Shown here: positions 2,543 to 60,680 of the stretch, piece after piece | How the letters are laid out: the number at the start of each line of letters is the position of its first letter | Numbering within the stretch: the stretch's first letter is position 1 | Virus record (IMG/VR): IMGVR_UViG_3300001041_000017 | Span: 1-64,000 of that record | Source: a virus | Direction: 5' to 3' (one strand) | Length of the DNA stretch: 64,000 nt | Translations under genes and position numbers: made by a program | The notes under the pieces: model-generated | What the model was told of the DNA's origin: nothing | The model's database searches: none | Seen by the model: the letters and a program-made list of their open reading frames with translations, nothing else

Positions 2543-2582
2543 AAGGGAAATACCATAACTGGTTAGATATAATATAGGTAAG
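2543..2582 (+). promoter_or_regulatory. Phage-type promoter, copy 1
   Basis: AAGGGAAA-N15-GATATAATATAGGTAAG; the motif recurs at 3943, 54775 and 60637. Confidence 0.65.
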
Positions 2583-3942: not shown

Positions 3943-3983
3943 AAGGGAAAAACTGAAAATGTCTTGATATAATAAAGATAAGG
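3943..3983 (+). promoter_or_regulatory. Phage-type promoter, copy 2
   Basis: AAGGGAAA-N15-GATATAATAAAGATAAGG immediately after a terminator. Confidence 0.65.
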
Positions 3984-4216: not shown

Positions 4217-4666
4217 GTGATTAGTATGAGTAAGTGTAGAATATGTGGTGAGATGGAATATCAAAACGGTATGTGTCTAAAATGTTTCATCATTGACAGG
4301 GATGTAAATATAGCTAATATTGAAAACTGCAAAAAGCAGTTAGAAGAATTATACGGTCAAAAAGAGAAAGAATTGCAATTTAAAGCAGAATATATGTGTA
4401 GGCCTTTTCTGGATGGGAAACCTGTAGACTTTGATTATGAATCTTCTAAATCAGATTCTTTACCATTAGACTATCCAATTCTCCCTAAAAAAATAGTATC
4501 CAAAGTAATATTAAATAATCCCAGAAAAATATTTGTTTACTCTGGTAAGGTTTCGGGATTGTTGAAACGGTTAGAGGAATTAAGATTTTCCTTTGAAAAG
4601 AATATATTTTCAACAATCGAAAATCAAATGTCTATTGATTTTATGAGAGCAGGTTTGTATAAATGA
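4217..4666 (+). CDS. Hypothetical protein with N-terminal CxxC...CxxC
   Basis: CRICG...MCLKC; RBS GAGGTG suggests start at 4226. Confidence 0.65.
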   Translation: MISMSKCRICGEMEYQNGMCLKCFIIDRDVNIANIENCKKQLEELYGQKEKELQFKAEYMCRPFLDGKPVDFDYESSKSDSLPLDYPILPKKIVSKVILNNPRKIFVYSGKVSGLLKRLEELRFSFEKNIFSTIENQMSIDFMRAGLYK

Positions 4667-5196
4667 ACATTAGAATAGCCGGACCTATAGTTCAAGATTC
4701 TATAGTTGATGGACCGGGGATAAGACATACTATTTTTACTCAAGGATGTCATTGGAATTGTCCAGGATGTCATAATCCTGAATCTCATAGTCTTAGTGGT
4801 GGAAAGATTTTAAAAGTAGATGATTTATATATGGAATTGAAAGAAATACTTAGACCATCAATTCATAGAGGGATAACTTTTTCCGGTGGAGATCCTTTTC
4901 TCTGGCCGTTAGAATTAAGTTATCTTGCTGAGAAAATAAAAACTCTTGGAAACTATGATATTATAGTTTACACTGGTTATAGTATGGAAGAATTAAAGCC
5001 TTTGAAGAAATGGATAAAGTTTTTAGAATTGATTGATTTGTTAGTAACAGATAGATTTCTTTTAGAACAAAAAGATTTATCGACTCCATTCCGGGGAAGT
5101 AGAAATCAAAGGATTTGGAAAAAGATTCTTAGAAATAATGGAATGATGTCTTTTGAACAAATTTCTGAAAAAGATATTTTGGGAGGTAAGATATGA
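4663..5196 (+). CDS. nrdG: Anaerobic ribonucleotide reductase activating protein (radical SAM)
   Basis: DSIVDGPGIR, FTQGCHWNCPGCHNP (CxxxCxxC), GITFSGGDP, FRGSRNQR. Confidence 0.92.
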   Translation: MNIRIAGPIVQDSIVDGPGIRHTIFTQGCHWNCPGCHNPESHSLSGGKILKVDDLYMELKEILRPSIHRGITFSGGDPFLWPLELSYLAEKIKTLGNYDIIVYTGYSMEELKPLKKWIKFLELIDLLVTDRFLLEQKDLSTPFRGSRNQRIWKKILRNNGMMSFEQISEKDILGGKI

Positions 5197-6427: not shown

Positions 6428-7936
6428 TTGTCTGGATTAATACTTCCTCCTGGTGTCAAAGTAGAAAAACAGCATAAATCATATGTTGTAGATAGTGAAG
6501 GTGAAATTCAAGAAATTCAAGAGGTTAAGAAAAATAAAGTATTTAAGGCTGACAACAAAATGAAAATATTTGATGAGTCGGCCGAATCAACACAGCTTTT
6601 AGACGAATCTTGGAGGGATCGATATCTGACAGGTGAAGTTATAAGACCTCCCTATGATCCGTATAAGCTCAGACAGTTCTTAGAGGATTCTGTTTTCCAT
6701 CTACGTTCTGTTAAACAGAAAGCTATTGATGTTTGCTGTTTAGGATGGGACATACTCCCCATAGATCCTCTTCAACCAAAAGAGGGAACTAATTATAAAA
6801 CTCTAGTTGACTTTTTTACAGAAGCTAACCCAGATATAGAACTCGTAGAAGTTTTAGAAAATGCTTGGGTGGATTACGAATCAATAGGCTGGAAATGTAT
6901 TGAAATGACAAGAAATAAAGCAAAAAAACCATACGCTTTTTATCATGTCCCATCTTACACTATGAGAAAAGCAGTAAAAGATCATGTTCATTGGGGCTAC
7001 ATTCAGAGGCGTTTCAATAGTAAGGGTATCCTCATTGCAGAAAGACATTTTAAGAAACTTGGAGACATGGAAGAAAGAATAGATCCCAACACAGGTAAAC
7101 CTATGAACGAAATGATATGGATGGACAATTACAGCACATTAAACGACTGGTACGGGGTTCCAGAATGGATTCCTGCAATCGGAGCCATGATCGGCAACAA
7201 CGAAGCCAGGGATTATAACATAGCCTTTTTTGCAAACGGGGCTATTCCTCAGTACGCTATAATTATGGAGGGTGGGGAAGTAACACCTGAAGTAAGAAAT
7301 ATCATTAAGAAACATTTTAGAGATCTTAAGGGAACCCAAAATTCTCACAGAACTCTTATCCTGGAATGTCCTGAAGGTGGTAAGATTCATTTAATACCAT
7401 TAGCCGTTGAAGTCCGTGACGGACATTTCCGGCTCTATAGAAAAGATAATAGAGATGAGGTTCTAGTAGCTCATGGAATGCCCCCATATCGCATAGGGAT
7501 AGCTGAAACAGGTAGTCTAGGTAGTAACGTGAGCGAGAACGCTACAGTTGTTTATAAGAACTCTGTGGTAACTCCCAGGCAAGTTAAGTTAGAACATAGA
7601 CTAAAAAGATTAATAAAAAAATGTTTCGGAATATATGACTTCTATTTGAAGTTTGCCGAAATTGATATTGACGATAAGAAATTGAAAGCAGAAATAGACG
7701 AAATTGAATCCAAAGCAGCAAAGAATTGGGTAGATTCAAGAATTTATACTCCAAACGAAATAAGAAAACAAAGAGGCTCAGGACCTCTTCCCGGTGGAGA
7801 CGAATTTCCTAGTGATACTCCTCCTATTCAAAATGGTACTGAAAAGATTGATAATAAGGATGATCAAAATAAAGAGAAGAAAAAAGTAATCAAGAGAGGT
7901 TCTGAAGATTGGAACAAAAAATTCAACGTCAGCTAG
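6428..7936 (+). CDS. Portal protein (PBSX/HK97-like)
   Basis: WYGVPEW, FFANGAIP, NRDEVLVAHGMPPYRIG, YTPNEIRK...PLPGGD. Confidence 0.92.
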   Translation: MSGLILPPGVKVEKQHKSYVVDSEGEIQEIQEVKKNKVFKADNKMKIFDESAESTQLLDESWRDRYLTGEVIRPPYDPYKLRQFLEDSVFHLRSVKQKAIDVCCLGWDILPIDPLQPKEGTNYKTLVDFFTEANPDIELVEVLENAWVDYESIGWKCIEMTRNKAKKPYAFYHVPSYTMRKAVKDHVHWGYIQRRFNSKGILIAERHFKKLGDMEERIDPNTGKPMNEMIWMDNYSTLNDWYGVPEWIPAIGAMIGNNEARDYNIAFFANGAIPQYAIIMEGGEVTPEVRNIIKKHFRDLKGTQNSHRTLILECPEGGKIHLIPLAVEVRDGHFRLYRKDNRDEVLVAHGMPPYRIGIAETGSLGSNVSENATVVYKNSVVTPRQVKLEHRLKRLIKKCFGIYDFYLKFAEIDIDDKKLKAEIDEIESKAAKNWVDSRIYTPNEIRKQRGSGPLPGGDEFPSDTPPIQNGTEKIDNKDDQNKEKKKVIKRGSEDWNKKFNVS

Positions 7937-54774: not shown

Positions 54775-54815
54775 AAGGGAAATTACCTTAACTGATTAGA
54801 TATATTAAAGATAAG
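54775..54815 (+). promoter_or_regulatory. Phage-type promoter, copy 3
   Basis: AAGGGAAA-N16-GATATATTAAAGATAAG; spacer nearly identical to copy 1. Confidence 0.65.
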
Positions 54816-56169: not shown

Positions 56170-56203
56170 ATAACTTGACTCTCTTTTTTTATTGTGATAA
56201 TAT
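56149..56203 (+). promoter_or_regulatory. Terminator overlapping the sigmaA-like integrase promoter
   Basis: AAAAAGAGAGTTAAGTT...AACTTGACTCTCTTTTT hairpin; TTGACT-17-TAATAT with TG extension. Confidence 0.65.
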
Positions 56204-56212
56204 CAAAATATC

Positions 56213-57832
56213 TTGATATTATTTACATTAGGGGGAATTTATTTGAAAGAAAATCATATACCTCCTCATTTGAGAATGGCAAATTATAAAGAGCAAAAAA
56301 GAAATTCTGACAAAGAATCAGACAAGAGTTTAATTAAGCTTCAGGGATATGTCAGGATTTCTACAAAAAAAGAAGCTCAAAAAACATCTCTAGAATTTCA
56401 GGAAAAGCTATTAAAAGAATGGTGTGAAGTTCATGGATATCAATATGCTGGAACGGTTTTTGATATAAAATCTGGGGCATATATGAATTCAAGGACCGGT
56501 ATTCAAGATCTTTTAGAGATGGCTAAGAATGAAGAAATTCACGGATTAATAACCAAGGAGGTTTCAAGAACCTCCAGAGATATTCAAGACATAATTCAGT
56601 TAAAAAGAAAACTCTCTGATTATGGAGCCTTCTTAATTTCAATAAAGGAGGGTTACGACAGTAGATCGGATAACGATGAATTTTTGTTAACTATTTATGC
56701 AGCAATAGCCCAGAAAGAAAGAACCACTATTGGGAGTAGGTTGAAGACTACGCAACTAATAAAGGCCAGGAATGGTAGACCGAATAATAGGCCAGCTTTC
56801 GGATACCGAATATCAGAAGATAAAACCAGATATGAACCCTGCCCAATACATACTCCAATCTATAAAGAGATAGTAGATATGTTTCTGTCTGGGAAGGGTA
56901 AGAATGCTATTTGTAGAGAGTTGAATGGAAGAGGGTTAAAAACATACCTTGGATCTAAATTCTCCTCTCTAACGATAGATACAATCCTTAGAAACCCGGT
57001 CTACATCGGAACGTATATGTATAACACTTCATATTGTTTCCGTGATGCAGAGGGTAAAAAACAGAGGGTTATTAGACCTCAGAACGAATGGATAGTCAGA
57101 GAAAATAATCACGAATCCTTAATAGAAAACTTAACCTGGGAATCTATACAAGAGTCATTGGATAAGCGTAAAATAGATAAGAAATATACTGTTGATAAAA
57201 AATATTTACTAACCGGTAATTTAATTTGTTCAAGATGCGGATCTAAAATTTATGGAAAGATTCATTCTAGAACTAGGAAAGATGGATCGCGTCCTGTTTA
57301 TTATTTATGTTATAATGAGTTCGGAAACTGTCATTTACCGTATACCAGAAAAGAAATAATTGAGGATATGGTAAAAGAACATTTAACAAAAATAATTTAC
57401 GATCCGGAAATTCTGAGAGATGAAATAAATAATCAGAAAAATATTATGGACGTAAATAATTCAGATCTTGTCCAAAGAAGAGAAATTATTCAGAAGGAAT
57501 TATCCGATATCGAAAAAGCTATGAATAAACAATTTGTGGCCTACGAAAAGGATATAATTGATGTAGATACTTATGGTAAAAGAATTAAAGAATTAAAACA
57601 AAACAAACTAATTTTAGAGGAAGAATTATCTGTCCTGGAGAAGAAGTTAAGGAAAACTGATCGGATGGATAATAAGACAGAAATACTTTTCAGAGAAATA
57701 AAACAACTGTTGGATTTAGAAAAAAATCCTGATGTTGCTGAATTAGCCCTAGGTTTATTTGTAGATAAGATATATGTAGACTATAAGAAAGACAAATTAA
57801 TTTTGAAGTATAAATATACTTTTCAAGAGTGA
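56213..57832 (+). CDS. Large serine recombinase (integrase); start possibly TTG 56243
   Basis: GYVRIST, SRTSR, recombinase domain ILRNPVYIG, zinc ribbon CSRCG...YYLC, coiled coil. Confidence 0.95.
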   Translation: MILFTLGGIYLKENHIPPHLRMANYKEQKRNSDKESDKSLIKLQGYVRISTKKEAQKTSLEFQEKLLKEWCEVHGYQYAGTVFDIKSGAYMNSRTGIQDLLEMAKNEEIHGLITKEVSRTSRDIQDIIQLKRKLSDYGAFLISIKEGYDSRSDNDEFLLTIYAAIAQKERTTIGSRLKTTQLIKARNGRPNNRPAFGYRISEDKTRYEPCPIHTPIYKEIVDMFLSGKGKNAICRELNGRGLKTYLGSKFSSLTIDTILRNPVYIGTYMYNTSYCFRDAEGKKQRVIRPQNEWIVRENNHESLIENLTWESIQESLDKRKIDKKYTVDKKYLLTGNLICSRCGSKIYGKIHSRTRKDGSRPVYYLCYNEFGNCHLPYTRKEIIEDMVKEHLTKIIYDPEILRDEINNQKNIMDVNNSDLVQRREIIQKELSDIEKAMNKQFVAYEKDIIDVDTYGKRIKELKQNKLILEEELSVLEKKLRKTDRMDNKTEILFREIKQLLDLEKNPDVAELALGLFVDKIYVDYKKDKLILKYKYTFQE

Positions 57833-57839
57833 AATATAC

Positions 57840-57887
57840 TGTCCTAAATTGTAAGGGCGGGCAAAAGTACCTTTACAATTTAGGACA
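57840..57887. mobile_element. Candidate attP
   Basis: 15-bp perfect inverted repeat TGTCCTAAATTGTAA/TTACAATTTAGGACA around an 18-bp core, 7 bp after the integrase stop. Confidence 0.7.
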
Positions 57888-57896
57888 ACAAAAACC

Positions 57897-58316
57897 CTAA
57901 CAATGATTAATGTTAGGGTTTAATTTTTCCTGTAATTCTATTATGCTGTTGATGATTTTTTCGAGAGTGGAGACAGGGATTTTTTTATCATATGCTTTTT
58001 CGATTAAGAGAATATACGGAAGGAAATCCGTATGAGAAAGTATGTCTGGACTTAATTTATTATTGAGAATTCCTGATTCGTAAACATCATTTAAAGTAAA
58101 GTCGAACAAAAAATAAAACGGAGACACATTAAGTATTTCACTAAGAGTTGATATTAATTCTTTAGAAATATTTTTACCTCTTTTATCTTTAGAAAGAACA
58201 CTAATATAAGCTGCGGTCACATTTACCTTTTCTGCTAACTCCTTTTGTTTCAAACTCCTATTCTCCATAATTAATTTTAACTTTTCCCCAAATGTCAGAA
58301 CATCAAATCTCTTCAT
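57897..58316 (-). CDS. XRE-family HTH repressor (CI-like)
   Basis: FGEKLKLIMENRSLKQKELAEKVNVTAAYIS; GGAGGTG RBS; the only clear minus-strand gene. Confidence 0.88.
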   Translation of the reverse strand: MKRFDVLTFGEKLKLIMENRSLKQKELAEKVNVTAAYISVLSKDKRGKNISKELISTLSEILNVSPFYFLFDFTLNDVYESGILNNKLSPDILSHTDFLPYILLIEKAYDKKIPVSTLEKIINSIIELQEKLNPNINHC

Positions 58317-58519
58317 ATTATCACCTCCAAATTAAATGAATTATAGGCTATAAAACTTAAATTTGATTTATTGTTGTTATTGTACCCTAATATCAAAACA
58401 ATTTCTGTGACCGTCGTCACATTTTTATATATTTTTTTAACTTTTTAATTATATAACAAAAAGTTTATTCAAACAACAAAAATTCTCTTGTCTTTTTTCG
58501 ACAAATTAACTGAATGTTG

Positions 58520-58548
58520 TTGACATTAAGGTTATTATGAAATATAAT
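58520..58548 (+). promoter_or_regulatory. Consensus sigmaA promoter driving the phage sigma gene
   Basis: TTGACA-17-TATAAT, perfect match. Confidence 0.85.
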
Positions 58549-58657
58549 TCATGGAAATAACATAAAGTTAATTGATCGGCATATCATAATATAAACCCTA
58601 CATAAATAATAACGGTTAGTTAACAAAACCTTTATATTTAGAGAGGAGAGATATTTT

Positions 58658-59551
58658 GTGAAGAAGGGTCAATGCCAACAATGCCAAATATGTAGTTATT
58701 CCTGTGAGGACAAGGATTTACTTCTGAAACATCTAGAAGAATACCACGGATTAAGAGTAGGTTTTGTTTTAGAGAATGAGACAGGTGTTTTAGAGAACGA
58801 AATGTATCTAATAAGAGAAGGTCTCAGTAGTTCTATAGAGAAAGTTATAAGAAAGATGAGACCTTACTTAATTAAGGCTGTAAACCAGAAGTATTCTAAT
58901 TATCCCTCGAATCTTATGAATAAAGATGATTTTATCTCTATTGCAGAGATTTCTATTTGGGAGAGCTTGAATTGTCAGATAGAAAATCCAGAAATAAAGG
59001 ATAAATGTTATAAATATATTTGTCCGGTATGTGGTAAAGCGTTTACTAGCATGATTAGATACGAAAAACATTTGCTGGTTAAGCATGGTAAACAAATCTC
59101 CCCTAAAGTATCTATTGGAGAATTTGTTAACTTCAGATTAGGGGTACGACTCCAAAATGCCGTTAGAGATGAATACGCTCAAAAACGGCAAGGGAATCAT
59201 TTTTATAGTCGGGACGATGAAATGTCCCAATCATTATATTTAGACTATGCTTCTGAGAGAGACGAAGATTCTGATTTTAAGGAACTTGACTCTGGTATAA
59301 ACATAGAGGACGAAGTTTCTGAAAAGTTTTTGATTGAGGGAATAATCAAGAGACTTGGATCTTCTAATATAGATAAGGCAATTATAATTCAGCTATTTCG
59401 TGGTATAAAAGTAAGAAAAATTGCCACTAAAATATATAACGCTTATGGAGAGCATTCGTCTATTAAATCAGCTACTACAACCGTCAAAAATATGATAAAA
59501 GTTCTACTGGAGAACGGAAATGTATTTGAAGACGGTTTAAAAATATCATAA
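58658..59551 (+). CDS. Sigma70-family (SigH-like) factor with two C2H2 zinc fingers
   Basis: Region 2-like KMRPYLIKAV...KDDFISIAEISIWES / SIGEFV..RL..RLQNAVRDEYAQKR; region 4-like DKAIIIQLFRGIKVRKIA; two Cx2Cx12Hx4H motifs. Confidence 0.72.
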   Translation: MKKGQCQQCQICSYSCEDKDLLLKHLEEYHGLRVGFVLENETGVLENEMYLIREGLSSSIEKVIRKMRPYLIKAVNQKYSNYPSNLMNKDDFISIAEISIWESLNCQIENPEIKDKCYKYICPVCGKAFTSMIRYEKHLLVKHGKQISPKVSIGEFVNFRLGVRLQNAVRDEYAQKRQGNHFYSRDDEMSQSLYLDYASERDEDSDFKELDSGINIEDEVSEKFLIEGIIKRLGSSNIDKAIIIQLFRGIKVRKIATKIYNAYGEHSSIKSATTTVKNMIKVLLENGNVFEDGLKIS

Positions 59552-59556
59552 ATAAT

Positions 59557-59600
59557 TTAAGAAGAAACCTTTTACAATAAGAGGTTTCTTCTTAATTTTT
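59557..59600 (+). terminator. Intrinsic terminator
   Basis: TTAAGAAGAAACCT...AGGTTTCTTCTTAA plus TTTTT. Confidence 0.8.
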
Positions 59601-59706
59601 GATAAAATTATAAAAATTTTTCTACTAATCGTAAAAATAAAAAAGCAATTGATATATTAAAGATAGAGGGTAATTAAACACAAAATACAAAAGGTAAAGG
59701 GAGGAA

Positions 59707-60543
59707 TTGTTTTTGGCTAAGAAAACAACTGAAAAAAAGGACGATAAGAAAACTTCCAAGACTAAATCCAAATTTAAACTGAAGGATTTACTAGCCGGGG
59801 CTGAAGCTCTTGAGCTTGATACAGATGATATCGAGGATGATGCAAAGGCTTTAGAAGCAGCCATTGATGATGCTGTTTCAGATTTAGACGAGGATGATAC
59901 CTGTGAGTGTGGTGAGTGCGGTAAAGACATTCCTGACGTAGACACTTGCCCCTACTGCGGTAAAGTCTTCGAAACAGACGACTCCGATGAAGACGAAGAA
60001 TCGGATGAAGATAACGACGAAGAAGAGGAAGAAGAACCTGCCACTATTAAGACTGTGGGCAAAGGCAAGAATAAAACCTTTAGCTGCTCTAAGTGCGGTA
60101 AGGCTGTAAAAGAGGATTCCAAGTCTTGCCCTAATAAGAAGTGTAAAGCTGTTTTTGAGACCGAAGAAGAGGATGAGGACGAGGAAGAAGAAACGTCCAA
60201 AAAGTCCTCTAAGAAGGATGATAAAAAAGCTGGCAAGGCTTCCGATAAAAAATCGGGCAAGGGTAAGAAAGATCCCGATCCGGAAGAAGAGGAAGATGAG
60301 GACGACGAAGAGGATGAAGAAGAAGTCGTCTATATAACTACTTCCGGTAAGGGTAAGAAGAAGAAATTTATCTGCTCAGGCTGCGGTGAAGAAGTAAAAG
60401 AAACCGCTAAAAAGTGCAAGGGTTGTAAGGCCGTATTTGGCGAAGAACCCGAAGAAGAGGAAGACGAGGAAGAAGAAACTCCTCCTCCGAAGAAGTCTTC
60501 CAAGAAGGACGATAAGAAGTCGTCCAAAAAGGGTAAGAAGTAA
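59707..60543 (+). CDS. Low-complexity acidic/Lys-rich protein with three zinc ribbons
   Basis: Three CxxC...CxxC-type units separated by poly-D/E and KKSSKKDDKK blocks; GGGAGG RBS. Confidence 0.8.
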   Translation: MFLAKKTTEKKDDKKTSKTKSKFKLKDLLAGAEALELDTDDIEDDAKALEAAIDDAVSDLDEDDTCECGECGKDIPDVDTCPYCGKVFETDDSDEDEESDEDNDEEEEEEPATIKTVGKGKNKTFSCSKCGKAVKEDSKSCPNKKCKAVFETEEEDEDEEEETSKKSSKKDDKKAGKASDKKSGKGKKDPDPEEEEDEDDEEDEEEVVYITTSGKGKKKKFICSGCGEEVKETAKKCKGCKAVFGEEPEEEEDEEEETPPPKKSSKKDDKKSSKKGKK

Positions 60544-60636: not shown

Positions 60637-60680
60637 AAGGGAAAAAACGAATTTATTTATATATAATATAGATAAGGAGG
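60637..60680 (+). promoter_or_regulatory. Phage-type promoter, copy 4
   Basis: AAGGGAAA-N15-TATATAATATAGATAAGG. Confidence 0.65.

Follow-up and report, generated by a model that had tools for sequence, protein, structure and literature searches.

A likely phage sigma-70-family factor with a C2H2 zinc finger in the −10 specificity loop

To our knowledge, in the sigma factors of all known groups it is a short loop together with a helix that reads the −10 element, and we know of no phage sigma factor with a zinc finger inside the σ2 domain. Aromatic residues of region 2.3 hold the flipped −11 base and act as a wedge in the duplex, and larger sigma factors usually touch the duplex immediately before the −10 box with their σ3 domain. 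The pocket that receives the flipped −11 “master nucleotide” is formed by loop L3, a modular, swappable −10 specificity determinant in the extracytoplasmic function (ECF) sigma factors (PMC6372665). Here, we analyze a 297-residue protein, P0001, which is encoded with a GTG start by the open reading frame (ORF) at 58658–59551 on the plus strand of IMG/VR viral contig IMGVR_UViG_3300001041_000017. The window under study is the first 64 kb of this 80,057-bp contig, for which the estimated completeness is 67%. P0001 is very probably a sigma-70-family protein. It is likely to be a phage factor of the reduced σ2-linker-σ4 type, nearest to SigH and ECF-like factors, that redirects the host polymerase and holds a C2H2 finger in loop L3.

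We compared P0001 to the closest described systems. SigH, as seen in B. subtilis SigH and the Fusobacterium “sigma-H” fragment 3mzy, was the best match both for the family profile (regions 2.2–4.2) and in Foldseek, and has the same compact σ2 plus σ4 layout. However, P0001 is only around 15% identical to B. subtilis SigH in the Foldseek alignment and passes no NCBIfam or Pfam sigma model. A 25-residue C2H2 finger and connector take the place of the short loop between regions 2.2 and 2.3, a further finger is found at the N-terminus, and the helix-turn-helix (HTH) has a longer turn. The ECF (group 4) factors, such as E. coli σE, M. tuberculosis SigL and S. coelicolor ShbA, likewise consist of σ2 and σ4 joined by a flexible linker. 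The modeled σ2 domain of P0001 superposes on theirs (rmsd ~3 Å, Z 8–8.8) and has a Trp at the ECF-typical position in region 2.2. Their L3 is a short loop of ~10 residues, whereas the L3 of P0001 is a zinc-finger domain. Also, no anti-sigma gene of a known type lies beside the P0001 gene, whose neighbors encode an HTH repressor and a zinc-ribbon polyampholyte, and no sign of autoregulation was seen.

The nearest predicted viral structures to P0001 are phage sigma factors (Bacillus phages G, Bobb and phiAGATE, Tenacibaculum phages, T4 gp55). The presumed role is the same, early-expressed redirection of the host RNA polymerase to later phage promoters, yet none matches the P0001 family by sequence (50,697 phage records, PHROGs). 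Relative to the classical C2H2 fingers of the Zif268/Kruppel type, the fingers of P0001 share the Cx2Cx12Hx4H spacing, the predicted β-β-α fold, the Pfam match, the hydrophobic core positions (F129, Y135, L22) and the CP-CGK-F motif. The classical fingers form tandem arrays with TGEKP linkers and more commonly have Hx3H spacing, whereas P0001 has single Hx4H fingers in or on a bacterial-type sigma factor, with reading positions that are neither conserved nor basic across the family. The “Kruppel-type” label of an initial annotation, made from the sequence alone, holds as a resemblance, which is no evidence of a eukaryotic origin; the His spacing differs. P0001 resembles a SigH/ECF-type phage sigma factor and is a member of no curated sigma subfamily. 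A full-text literature search for phage sigma factors with a C2H2 or other zinc finger returned no description of this layout and no named family, in agreement with the initial annotation, which knew of no such architecture.

The two fingers are exact Cx2Cx12Hx4H motifs, C9/C12/H25/H30 and C122/C125/H138/H143, at the residues first claimed for them, and the second lies within the local sequence Y-I-C-P-V-C-G-K-A-F. These are the only two matches to the motif in a six-frame translation of the 80 kb. In composition shuffles of P0001 (8 Cys, 6 His; n = 200,000), at least one motif arose in 0.017% and two arose in none. The Pfam zf-C2H2 model (PF00096) scored 30.6 bits against a cut-off of 25.2 over two stretches, the better being residues 120–143, and the best sequence matches of P0001 in the PDB were consensus and ZBTB20 fingers.

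Relatives were sought with phmmer, exhaustively, among 1.84 billion cluster representatives. Of the 27 matches, around ten were full-length relatives (225–261 residues, 21–29% identity), and the remainder were multi-finger proteins that aligned over the finger only. P0001 and the full-length relatives make up an alignment of 11 sequences, termed A1. The finger 2 ligands C122, C125, H138 and H143, which would bind zinc, are invariant in 11/11 sequences, and P123, D91, W101, I153, E172, A256, G264, S271 and A272 are invariant or nearly so. Residues ~1–48 of P0001 are absent in every relative, the N-termini of which align near Met49; thus, finger 1 is private to P0001. Conservation of the Cys/His ligands in homologues, which the initial annotation had offered as a check, therefore holds for finger 2; for finger 1, no relative has a corresponding segment. 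It is this additional N-terminal finger that sets P0001 apart from the rest of the family. The coding sequence and its finger-bearing parts are as follows.

58658–59551 (+): coding sequence of the candidate zinc-finger sigma factor (P0001, 297 residues), from the ORF and its translation
58658–58801 (+): N-terminal extension, residues 1–48, absent from all homologues in alignment A1
58676–58747 (+): finger 1, residues 7–30 (C9, C12, H25, H30; extra cysteines 6 and 16), from the motif, Pfam and the fold of the isolated finger
58970–59008 (+): private insert just before finger 2, residues 105–117, bounded by C105 and C117, from an 11-column alignment gap
59012–59086 (+): finger 2, residues 119–143 (C122, C125, H138, H143), in the 2.2/2.3 loop (loop L3), from Pfam above cut-off, ligands in 11/11 and a predicted local distance difference test score (pLDDT) of 82–92

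All of the relatives are metagenome sequences without names. No match was found by tblastn of P0001, P0003 and the homologue P0012 against 50,697 deposited GenBank phage genomes. A word-indexed protein search returned only P0001 itself and, with the family profile, only P0018 in addition. Related-locus searches found nothing among viral contigs (queries P0001, P0012, P0013 and P0018), among genome contigs (query P0001) or among metagenome contigs (query P0018). The family is rare: around ten members among 1.84 billion representatives, none in the 50,697 deposited phage genomes, and confined to metagenomes.

An AlphaFold2 (AF2) model of P0001 was built on A1. In the full-length model, finger 2 is a β-hairpin (strands ~120–128) followed by a helix (132–143), at pLDDT 82–92. 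Finger 1 was modeled poorly in the same run, because no homologue covers it. Folded alone, finger 1 gave a β-β-α arrangement (strands 7–8 and 15–16, helix 19–30; pLDDT 81–85 over residues 11–30). All 50 of the Foldseek PDB matches listed for it were C2H2 fingers, with weak E-values (0.09–0.6) of the kind to be expected from ~25 residues. An internal ATG at 58802 (Met49) aligns with the N-termini of all homologues, and a shorter isoform lacking finger 1 is conceivable; the upstream GTG has a much better ribosome-binding site (RBS).

The sigma assignment did not come from single-sequence searches. P0001 gave no sigma match in Pfam or NCBIfam (E-values up to 10), PHROGs or the PDB, and the two halves of P0001 without the finger matched only ribosomal S13 and antibodies in the PDB (E > 0.1). 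In contrast, the A1 profile matched SigH (3mzy_A, E 1.6e-5), with profile positions 102–233 aligned to chain residues 25–151 (regions 2.3/2.4 to the 4.2 HTH) and positions 52–75 to residues 3–36 (region 2.2). The same profile matched SigF (1l0o_C, E 0.003), over the N-terminal helices at positions 8–72, and SigB (8x6g_H, E 0.0055). Weak Pfam matches appeared among the family members, for Sigma70_r2 in 4/11 (best E 0.012) and Sigma70_r4 in 2/11 (best E 0.014). No NCBIfam SigH equivalog matched P0001, the SigH similarity being at the level of profile and fold only, and no ECF sequence model matched. The nearest ESM Atlas clusters scored 0.83–0.84, below the level that counts; one of these is a viral Sigma70_r2 cluster.

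The AF2 model has two confident blocks, residues 41–179 and 216–290, joined by an acidic disordered linker, and there is no σ3 domain. The parts of the predicted sigma fold are listed here.

58781–58969 (+): first part of σ2, helices 42–53, 60–81 and 89–104 (the last region 2.2-like; D91 and W101 nearly invariant), from A1, the SigF profile match, AF2 and VIA
59102–59194 (+): connector P-K-V-x-I and long region 2.3/2.4-like helix, residues 149–179, from the 3mzy alignment and AF2
59195–59302 (+): acidic linker, predicted to be disordered, residues 180–215, pLDDT 30–39
59303–59527 (+): σ4, residues 216–290, four helices, with G264, S271 and A272 conserved, from A1, the profile, AF2 and VIA

In a VIA structure search, which is independent of Foldseek, the top 24 rows were all sigma-family chains, including SigB (Z 9.9), ShbA (Z 8.8, rmsd 3.5 over 100 residues) and SigI6 (Z 8.7, rmsd 2.7 over 94), with further matches to SigC, RpoS, pro-σK, AlgU, SigW and σE. 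The list also contained 7d7d_F (Z 7.6), which we take to be phage T4 gp55. Entries comprising σ2 only matched model residues 40–179 with Z 8.0–8.8 and rmsd of 2.7–3.9 Å over 88–100 residues. Entries comprising σ4 matched residues 216–292 with Z 5.2–6.1, the best being SigA domain 4 (4g6d_A, Z 6.1, rmsd 2.4 over 57), together with SigR region 4 and SigD4; the σ4 entries include 5fgm_A and 3vep_D. Foldseek gave lists composed mostly of sigma factors from the PDB, led by B. subtilis SigH, and mostly of phage sigma factors from BFVD. Identity of P0001 to any cellular sigma factor was ~8–18%, and its σ4 HTH turn is ~8 residues longer than usual. Thus, the alignment to SigH-type regions 2.1–2.2, 2.3–2.4 and 4, first made by eye, failed for the single sequence and was borne out by the family profile and the predicted fold, and the structure prediction put forward as a check matched both σ2 and σ4 of many sigma factors. 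P0001 is matched by no curated sigma model, and has the predicted fold, the domain order and the key residues of the sigma-70 family.

Next, we located finger 2 within σ2. The σ2 superpositions cover 88–100 of ~135–147 model residues, and the 44–49 unaligned residues equal the size of the finger segment. In the 3mzy alignment, the region 2.2 helix ends directly before the first finger strand. Most relatives have a conserved K-F at the end of region 2.2 with the first finger Cys two residues on, and a conserved P-K-V-x-I connector lies directly before the 2.3 helix. The alignment and the model therefore support a position for finger 2 between the region 2.2 and 2.3 helices, in loop L3, the specificity loop itself. 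This agrees with and sharpens the initial placement in the 2.2/2.3 loop beside the −10 melting surface. F156 and F159 align with Y430 and W433 of σ70, in a two-step alignment via 3mzy in which the step from 3mzy to σ70 was made by eye. Each of the two equivalent positions is aromatic in 9/11 members.

The expression signals and neighbors of the gene are the following.

58520–58548 (+): σA-type promoter of the sigma gene, TTGACA-17-TATAAT, 12/12 matches, from a promoter scan
58643–58648 (+): RBS GAGGAG, 9 nt upstream of the GTG start, read from the sequence
59557–59595 (+): intrinsic terminator, 18-pair stem followed by a T run, from the sequence
57897–58316 (−): divergent HTH_3 (cI-like) repressor candidate, facing the sigma gene
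56213–57832: large serine integrase gene, just beyond the repressor candidate
59707–60543 (+): zinc-ribbon protein gene (three zinc ribbons, poly-D/E tracts and Lys-rich blocks), the downstream neighbor, with a counterpart directly after the sigma homologue of a related phage

The promoter is the sole 12/12 σA-type match within 57800–59800. Since promoter-like matches in this interval are no more numerous overall than in shuffles, its weight derives from the perfect match and the position. The gene has its own terminator and is thus a monocistronic unit, which could be read by the unmodified host polymerase. A protein identical to P0001 is on record on 13+5 contigs, the longest of ~119.9 kb. 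The sequencing reads that hold the window stretch are from groundwater metagenomes, a possible source of the contig, and no RNA run is listed among those sequencing runs. A search of the 80-kb record with the Sigma70_r2 model found no second sigma gene.

The intergenic region between the repressor candidate and the sigma gene contains a perfect palindrome, TGTGACCGTCGTCACA (TGTGAC-N4-GTCACA, 58406–58421), which could be an operator or a bidirectional terminator. It was rejected as a repeated operator, with only one copy in the window. The word TAATATCAA occurs in four intergenic regions (56190–56215, 58380–58395, ~88 and ~60600) and is arranged as an inverted repeat in front of the integrase gene (AATATCAA ... 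TTGATATT); this word is a possible operator for the repressor. A Spo0A-box heptamer, TGTCGAA (58497–58503, −), lies 17 nt upstream of the −35 box of the sigma promoter as a single copy. The window count of five equals chance, and we did not use it as evidence.

We read the genomic context in one related phage, that of the homologue P0012, which lies on two overlapping metagenome contigs (the L004 locus) of 45% GC, versus 32% for the window phage. There, helicase, DnaB, primase and four small ORFs precede the sigma homologue, which is followed by a zinc-ribbon/poly-acidic/Lys-rich protein, then DnaE and, further on, RecA. This is the order of the window minus the integrase and the repressor, neither of which is found near the homologue. 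Thus, the sigma gene looks like a core gene of the replication-module neighborhood in this phage lineage, and the lysogeny cassette resembles an insertion next to it. The downstream neighbor of the sigma gene is conserved (59707–60543, +, in the window; 7918–9156 in L004). BLASTP of the two proteins gave E 6e-4 over the first zinc ribbon. Both have extreme acidic tracts, and the L004 protein also has an H1-like Lys/Pro-rich tract. A 66-residue HTH ORF, excisionase- or MerR-like, overlaps the start of the L004 sigma homologue (6959–7159, +).

These loci also bear on the suggestion that the gene, as the one directly opposite the repressor, acts as the lytic master switch. In the window it does face an HTH_3 repressor candidate, from behind a perfect σA promoter that the repressor may well control. 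In L004, however, the homologue has no repressor nearby, so a master switch by virtue of facing a repressor is not a property of the family, and the suggestion is weakened and holds at best in part.

We explored candidate target promoters of P0001. The octamer AAGGGAAA occurs four times in the 80 kb, always in intergenic regions and each time 17–18 nt before TATAAT or TATATT:

2543–2573 (+): candidate target promoter AAGGGAAA-17-TATAAT
3943–3973 (+): candidate target promoter AAGGGAAA-17-TATAAT
54775–54806 (+): candidate target promoter AAGGGAAA-18-TATATT, upstream of the primase gene
60637–60667 (+): candidate target promoter AAGGGAAA-17-TATAAT, upstream of the dUTPase and DnaE genes

The four −10 sites at this spacing compare with 0.29 expected, and no shuffle reached four. 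The genes behind them are accessory genes, a cluster with an NrdG-like radical-SAM gene among its members, primase and the dUTPase/DnaE block, with no structural gene. These four promoters would be the most likely targets of P0001. Read as GGGA-N17/18-GATA, the sites parallel the SigH promoter layout AGGA-N17/18-GAAT (PMC12456013), which is suggestive only. No shared promoter motif was seen in the related phage (L003/L004), where there are too few intergenic regions.

Most of the AAGGGAAA sites follow a terminator, and their common flanks are a T-rich upstream stretch and AWAGATAAGG downstream. A shared −10 plus downstream element, roughly GATATAWTAWAGATAAGG, is found at ~8 intergenic sites, some without the AAGGGAAA box (~2566, 3966, 49062, 50575, 54798, 59650 and 60660 of the window, and ~64975 of the genome). 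It could point to a class of phage promoters or to a 5′ leader that has been conserved. The radical-SAM protein at 4663–5196 (+) is like an anaerobic ribonucleotide reductase activase (Fer4_12 plus Radical_SAM), which suggests an anaerobic host.

We propose that the sigma gene would be transcribed early by the host σA-RNA polymerase from its perfect consensus promoter, and that during lysogeny this promoter is probably silenced by the divergent repressor. P0001 would bind the host core RNA polymerase, with the region 2.2 helix on the β′ clamp helices and σ4 on the β flap, and redirect the enzyme to phage promoters. Because finger 2 lies in L3 and the melting aromatics are kept, we infer that the finger changes the reading of the −10/upstream-fork region; it would be part of this reading surface, or right on it, and alter recognition there. 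In this position it appears well placed for the flipped base or for the duplex normally touched by σ3, and may stand in for the missing σ3 domain. P0001, alone in the family, would add the second C2H2 finger on its N-terminal extension. Contact of finger 2 with DNA is possible, if on balance somewhat doubtful. Just as tentatively, the finger may have taken over the job of L3, such that promoter opening depends on recognition by the finger of the upstream border of the −10 element, with its variable helix as a swappable specificity cassette and the N-terminal finger adding a DNA or regulatory contact.

Several observations weigh against this proposal. No curated sigma model (Pfam, NCBIfam) reaches threshold on P0001 and no PHROG sigma family was found. 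The assignment draws on an 11-sequence profile and a predicted structure with a mean pLDDT of 69.8, and Z scores of 8–10 for helical domains are not decisive by themselves. The candidate target promoters carry a near-consensus σA −10 box, some with a TG extension, and host σA with an activator, or host SigH, are possible readers of the AAGGGAAA sites; further, no promoter class was found before the structural genes. Finally, the reading positions of finger 2 (−1, +2, +3 and +6) are variable and often acidic across A1, and its net charge is not consistently positive in the family, so that, judged by sequence, it does not look like a classical duplex-reading finger.

This last point leads to the strongest alternative, in which P0001 is a working sigma factor and the finger makes no DNA contact, acting as a zinc-stabilized plug, as a docking site for an anti-sigma, a co-factor or β/β′, or as a zinc/redox switch. 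We regard this as rather unlikely. In addition to the unconserved, often acidic reading positions, Glu is common at +1 and the finger of some members is net negative; however, variability at these positions is also expected from diversifying promoter specificity, and the pattern fits either that or a role in structure, docking or sensing. Four extra cysteines (C6, C16, C105 and C117) lie beside the fingers of P0001, but these are not conserved in the family. In two distant phages, the gene next after the sigma gene encodes a zinc-ribbon polyampholyte, and a partner protein is conceivable. Against a role away from DNA, the finger occupies the very loop with which other sigma factors read the −11 base.

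Improbable, in our assessment, is a host mimic, a SigH-like sigma that reprograms a spore-forming host at its transition-state or sporulation genes. SigH is the best match by sequence profile and Foldseek, and effects of phage sigma factors on host sporulation have been documented, as for the sporulation-like sigmas of Bacillus phages (PMC9429907). However, the low identity to cellular sigma factors and the missing NCBIfam SigH match speak against a copy taken recently from a host, a location among replication genes is retained in a phage of quite different GC content, and promoter-like sites with a SigH-like layout are found inside the phage genome itself. Slightly less probable again is a sigma-derived protein that is no longer an initiation factor, such as a repressor or activator that uses its HTH and fingers, or a decoy that shuts off the host by sitting on core RNA polymerase. 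In its favor are the absent curated sigma match, the unusually long σ4 HTH turn and an L3 loop disrupted by ~35–45 extra residues. Against it stands the retention across the family of both sigma domains, the ECF-like linker length, D91/W101 and the melting aromatics, which argues for selection for full initiation function.

We therefore favor a phage sigma factor that redirects the host polymerase and carries its finger in L3. If the finger has in addition taken over the job of L3, bacterial promoters would be recognized in a new way, by a zinc finger at the upstream edge of the −10 element, and the σ2 scaffold would tolerate a whole domain at its most critical surface. A different way of nucleating promoter melting might emerge, and this natural family could serve as a template for sigma factors that are orthogonal and engineerable. 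It would also add to the few examples of classical C2H2 fingers with a defined job in bacterial viruses.

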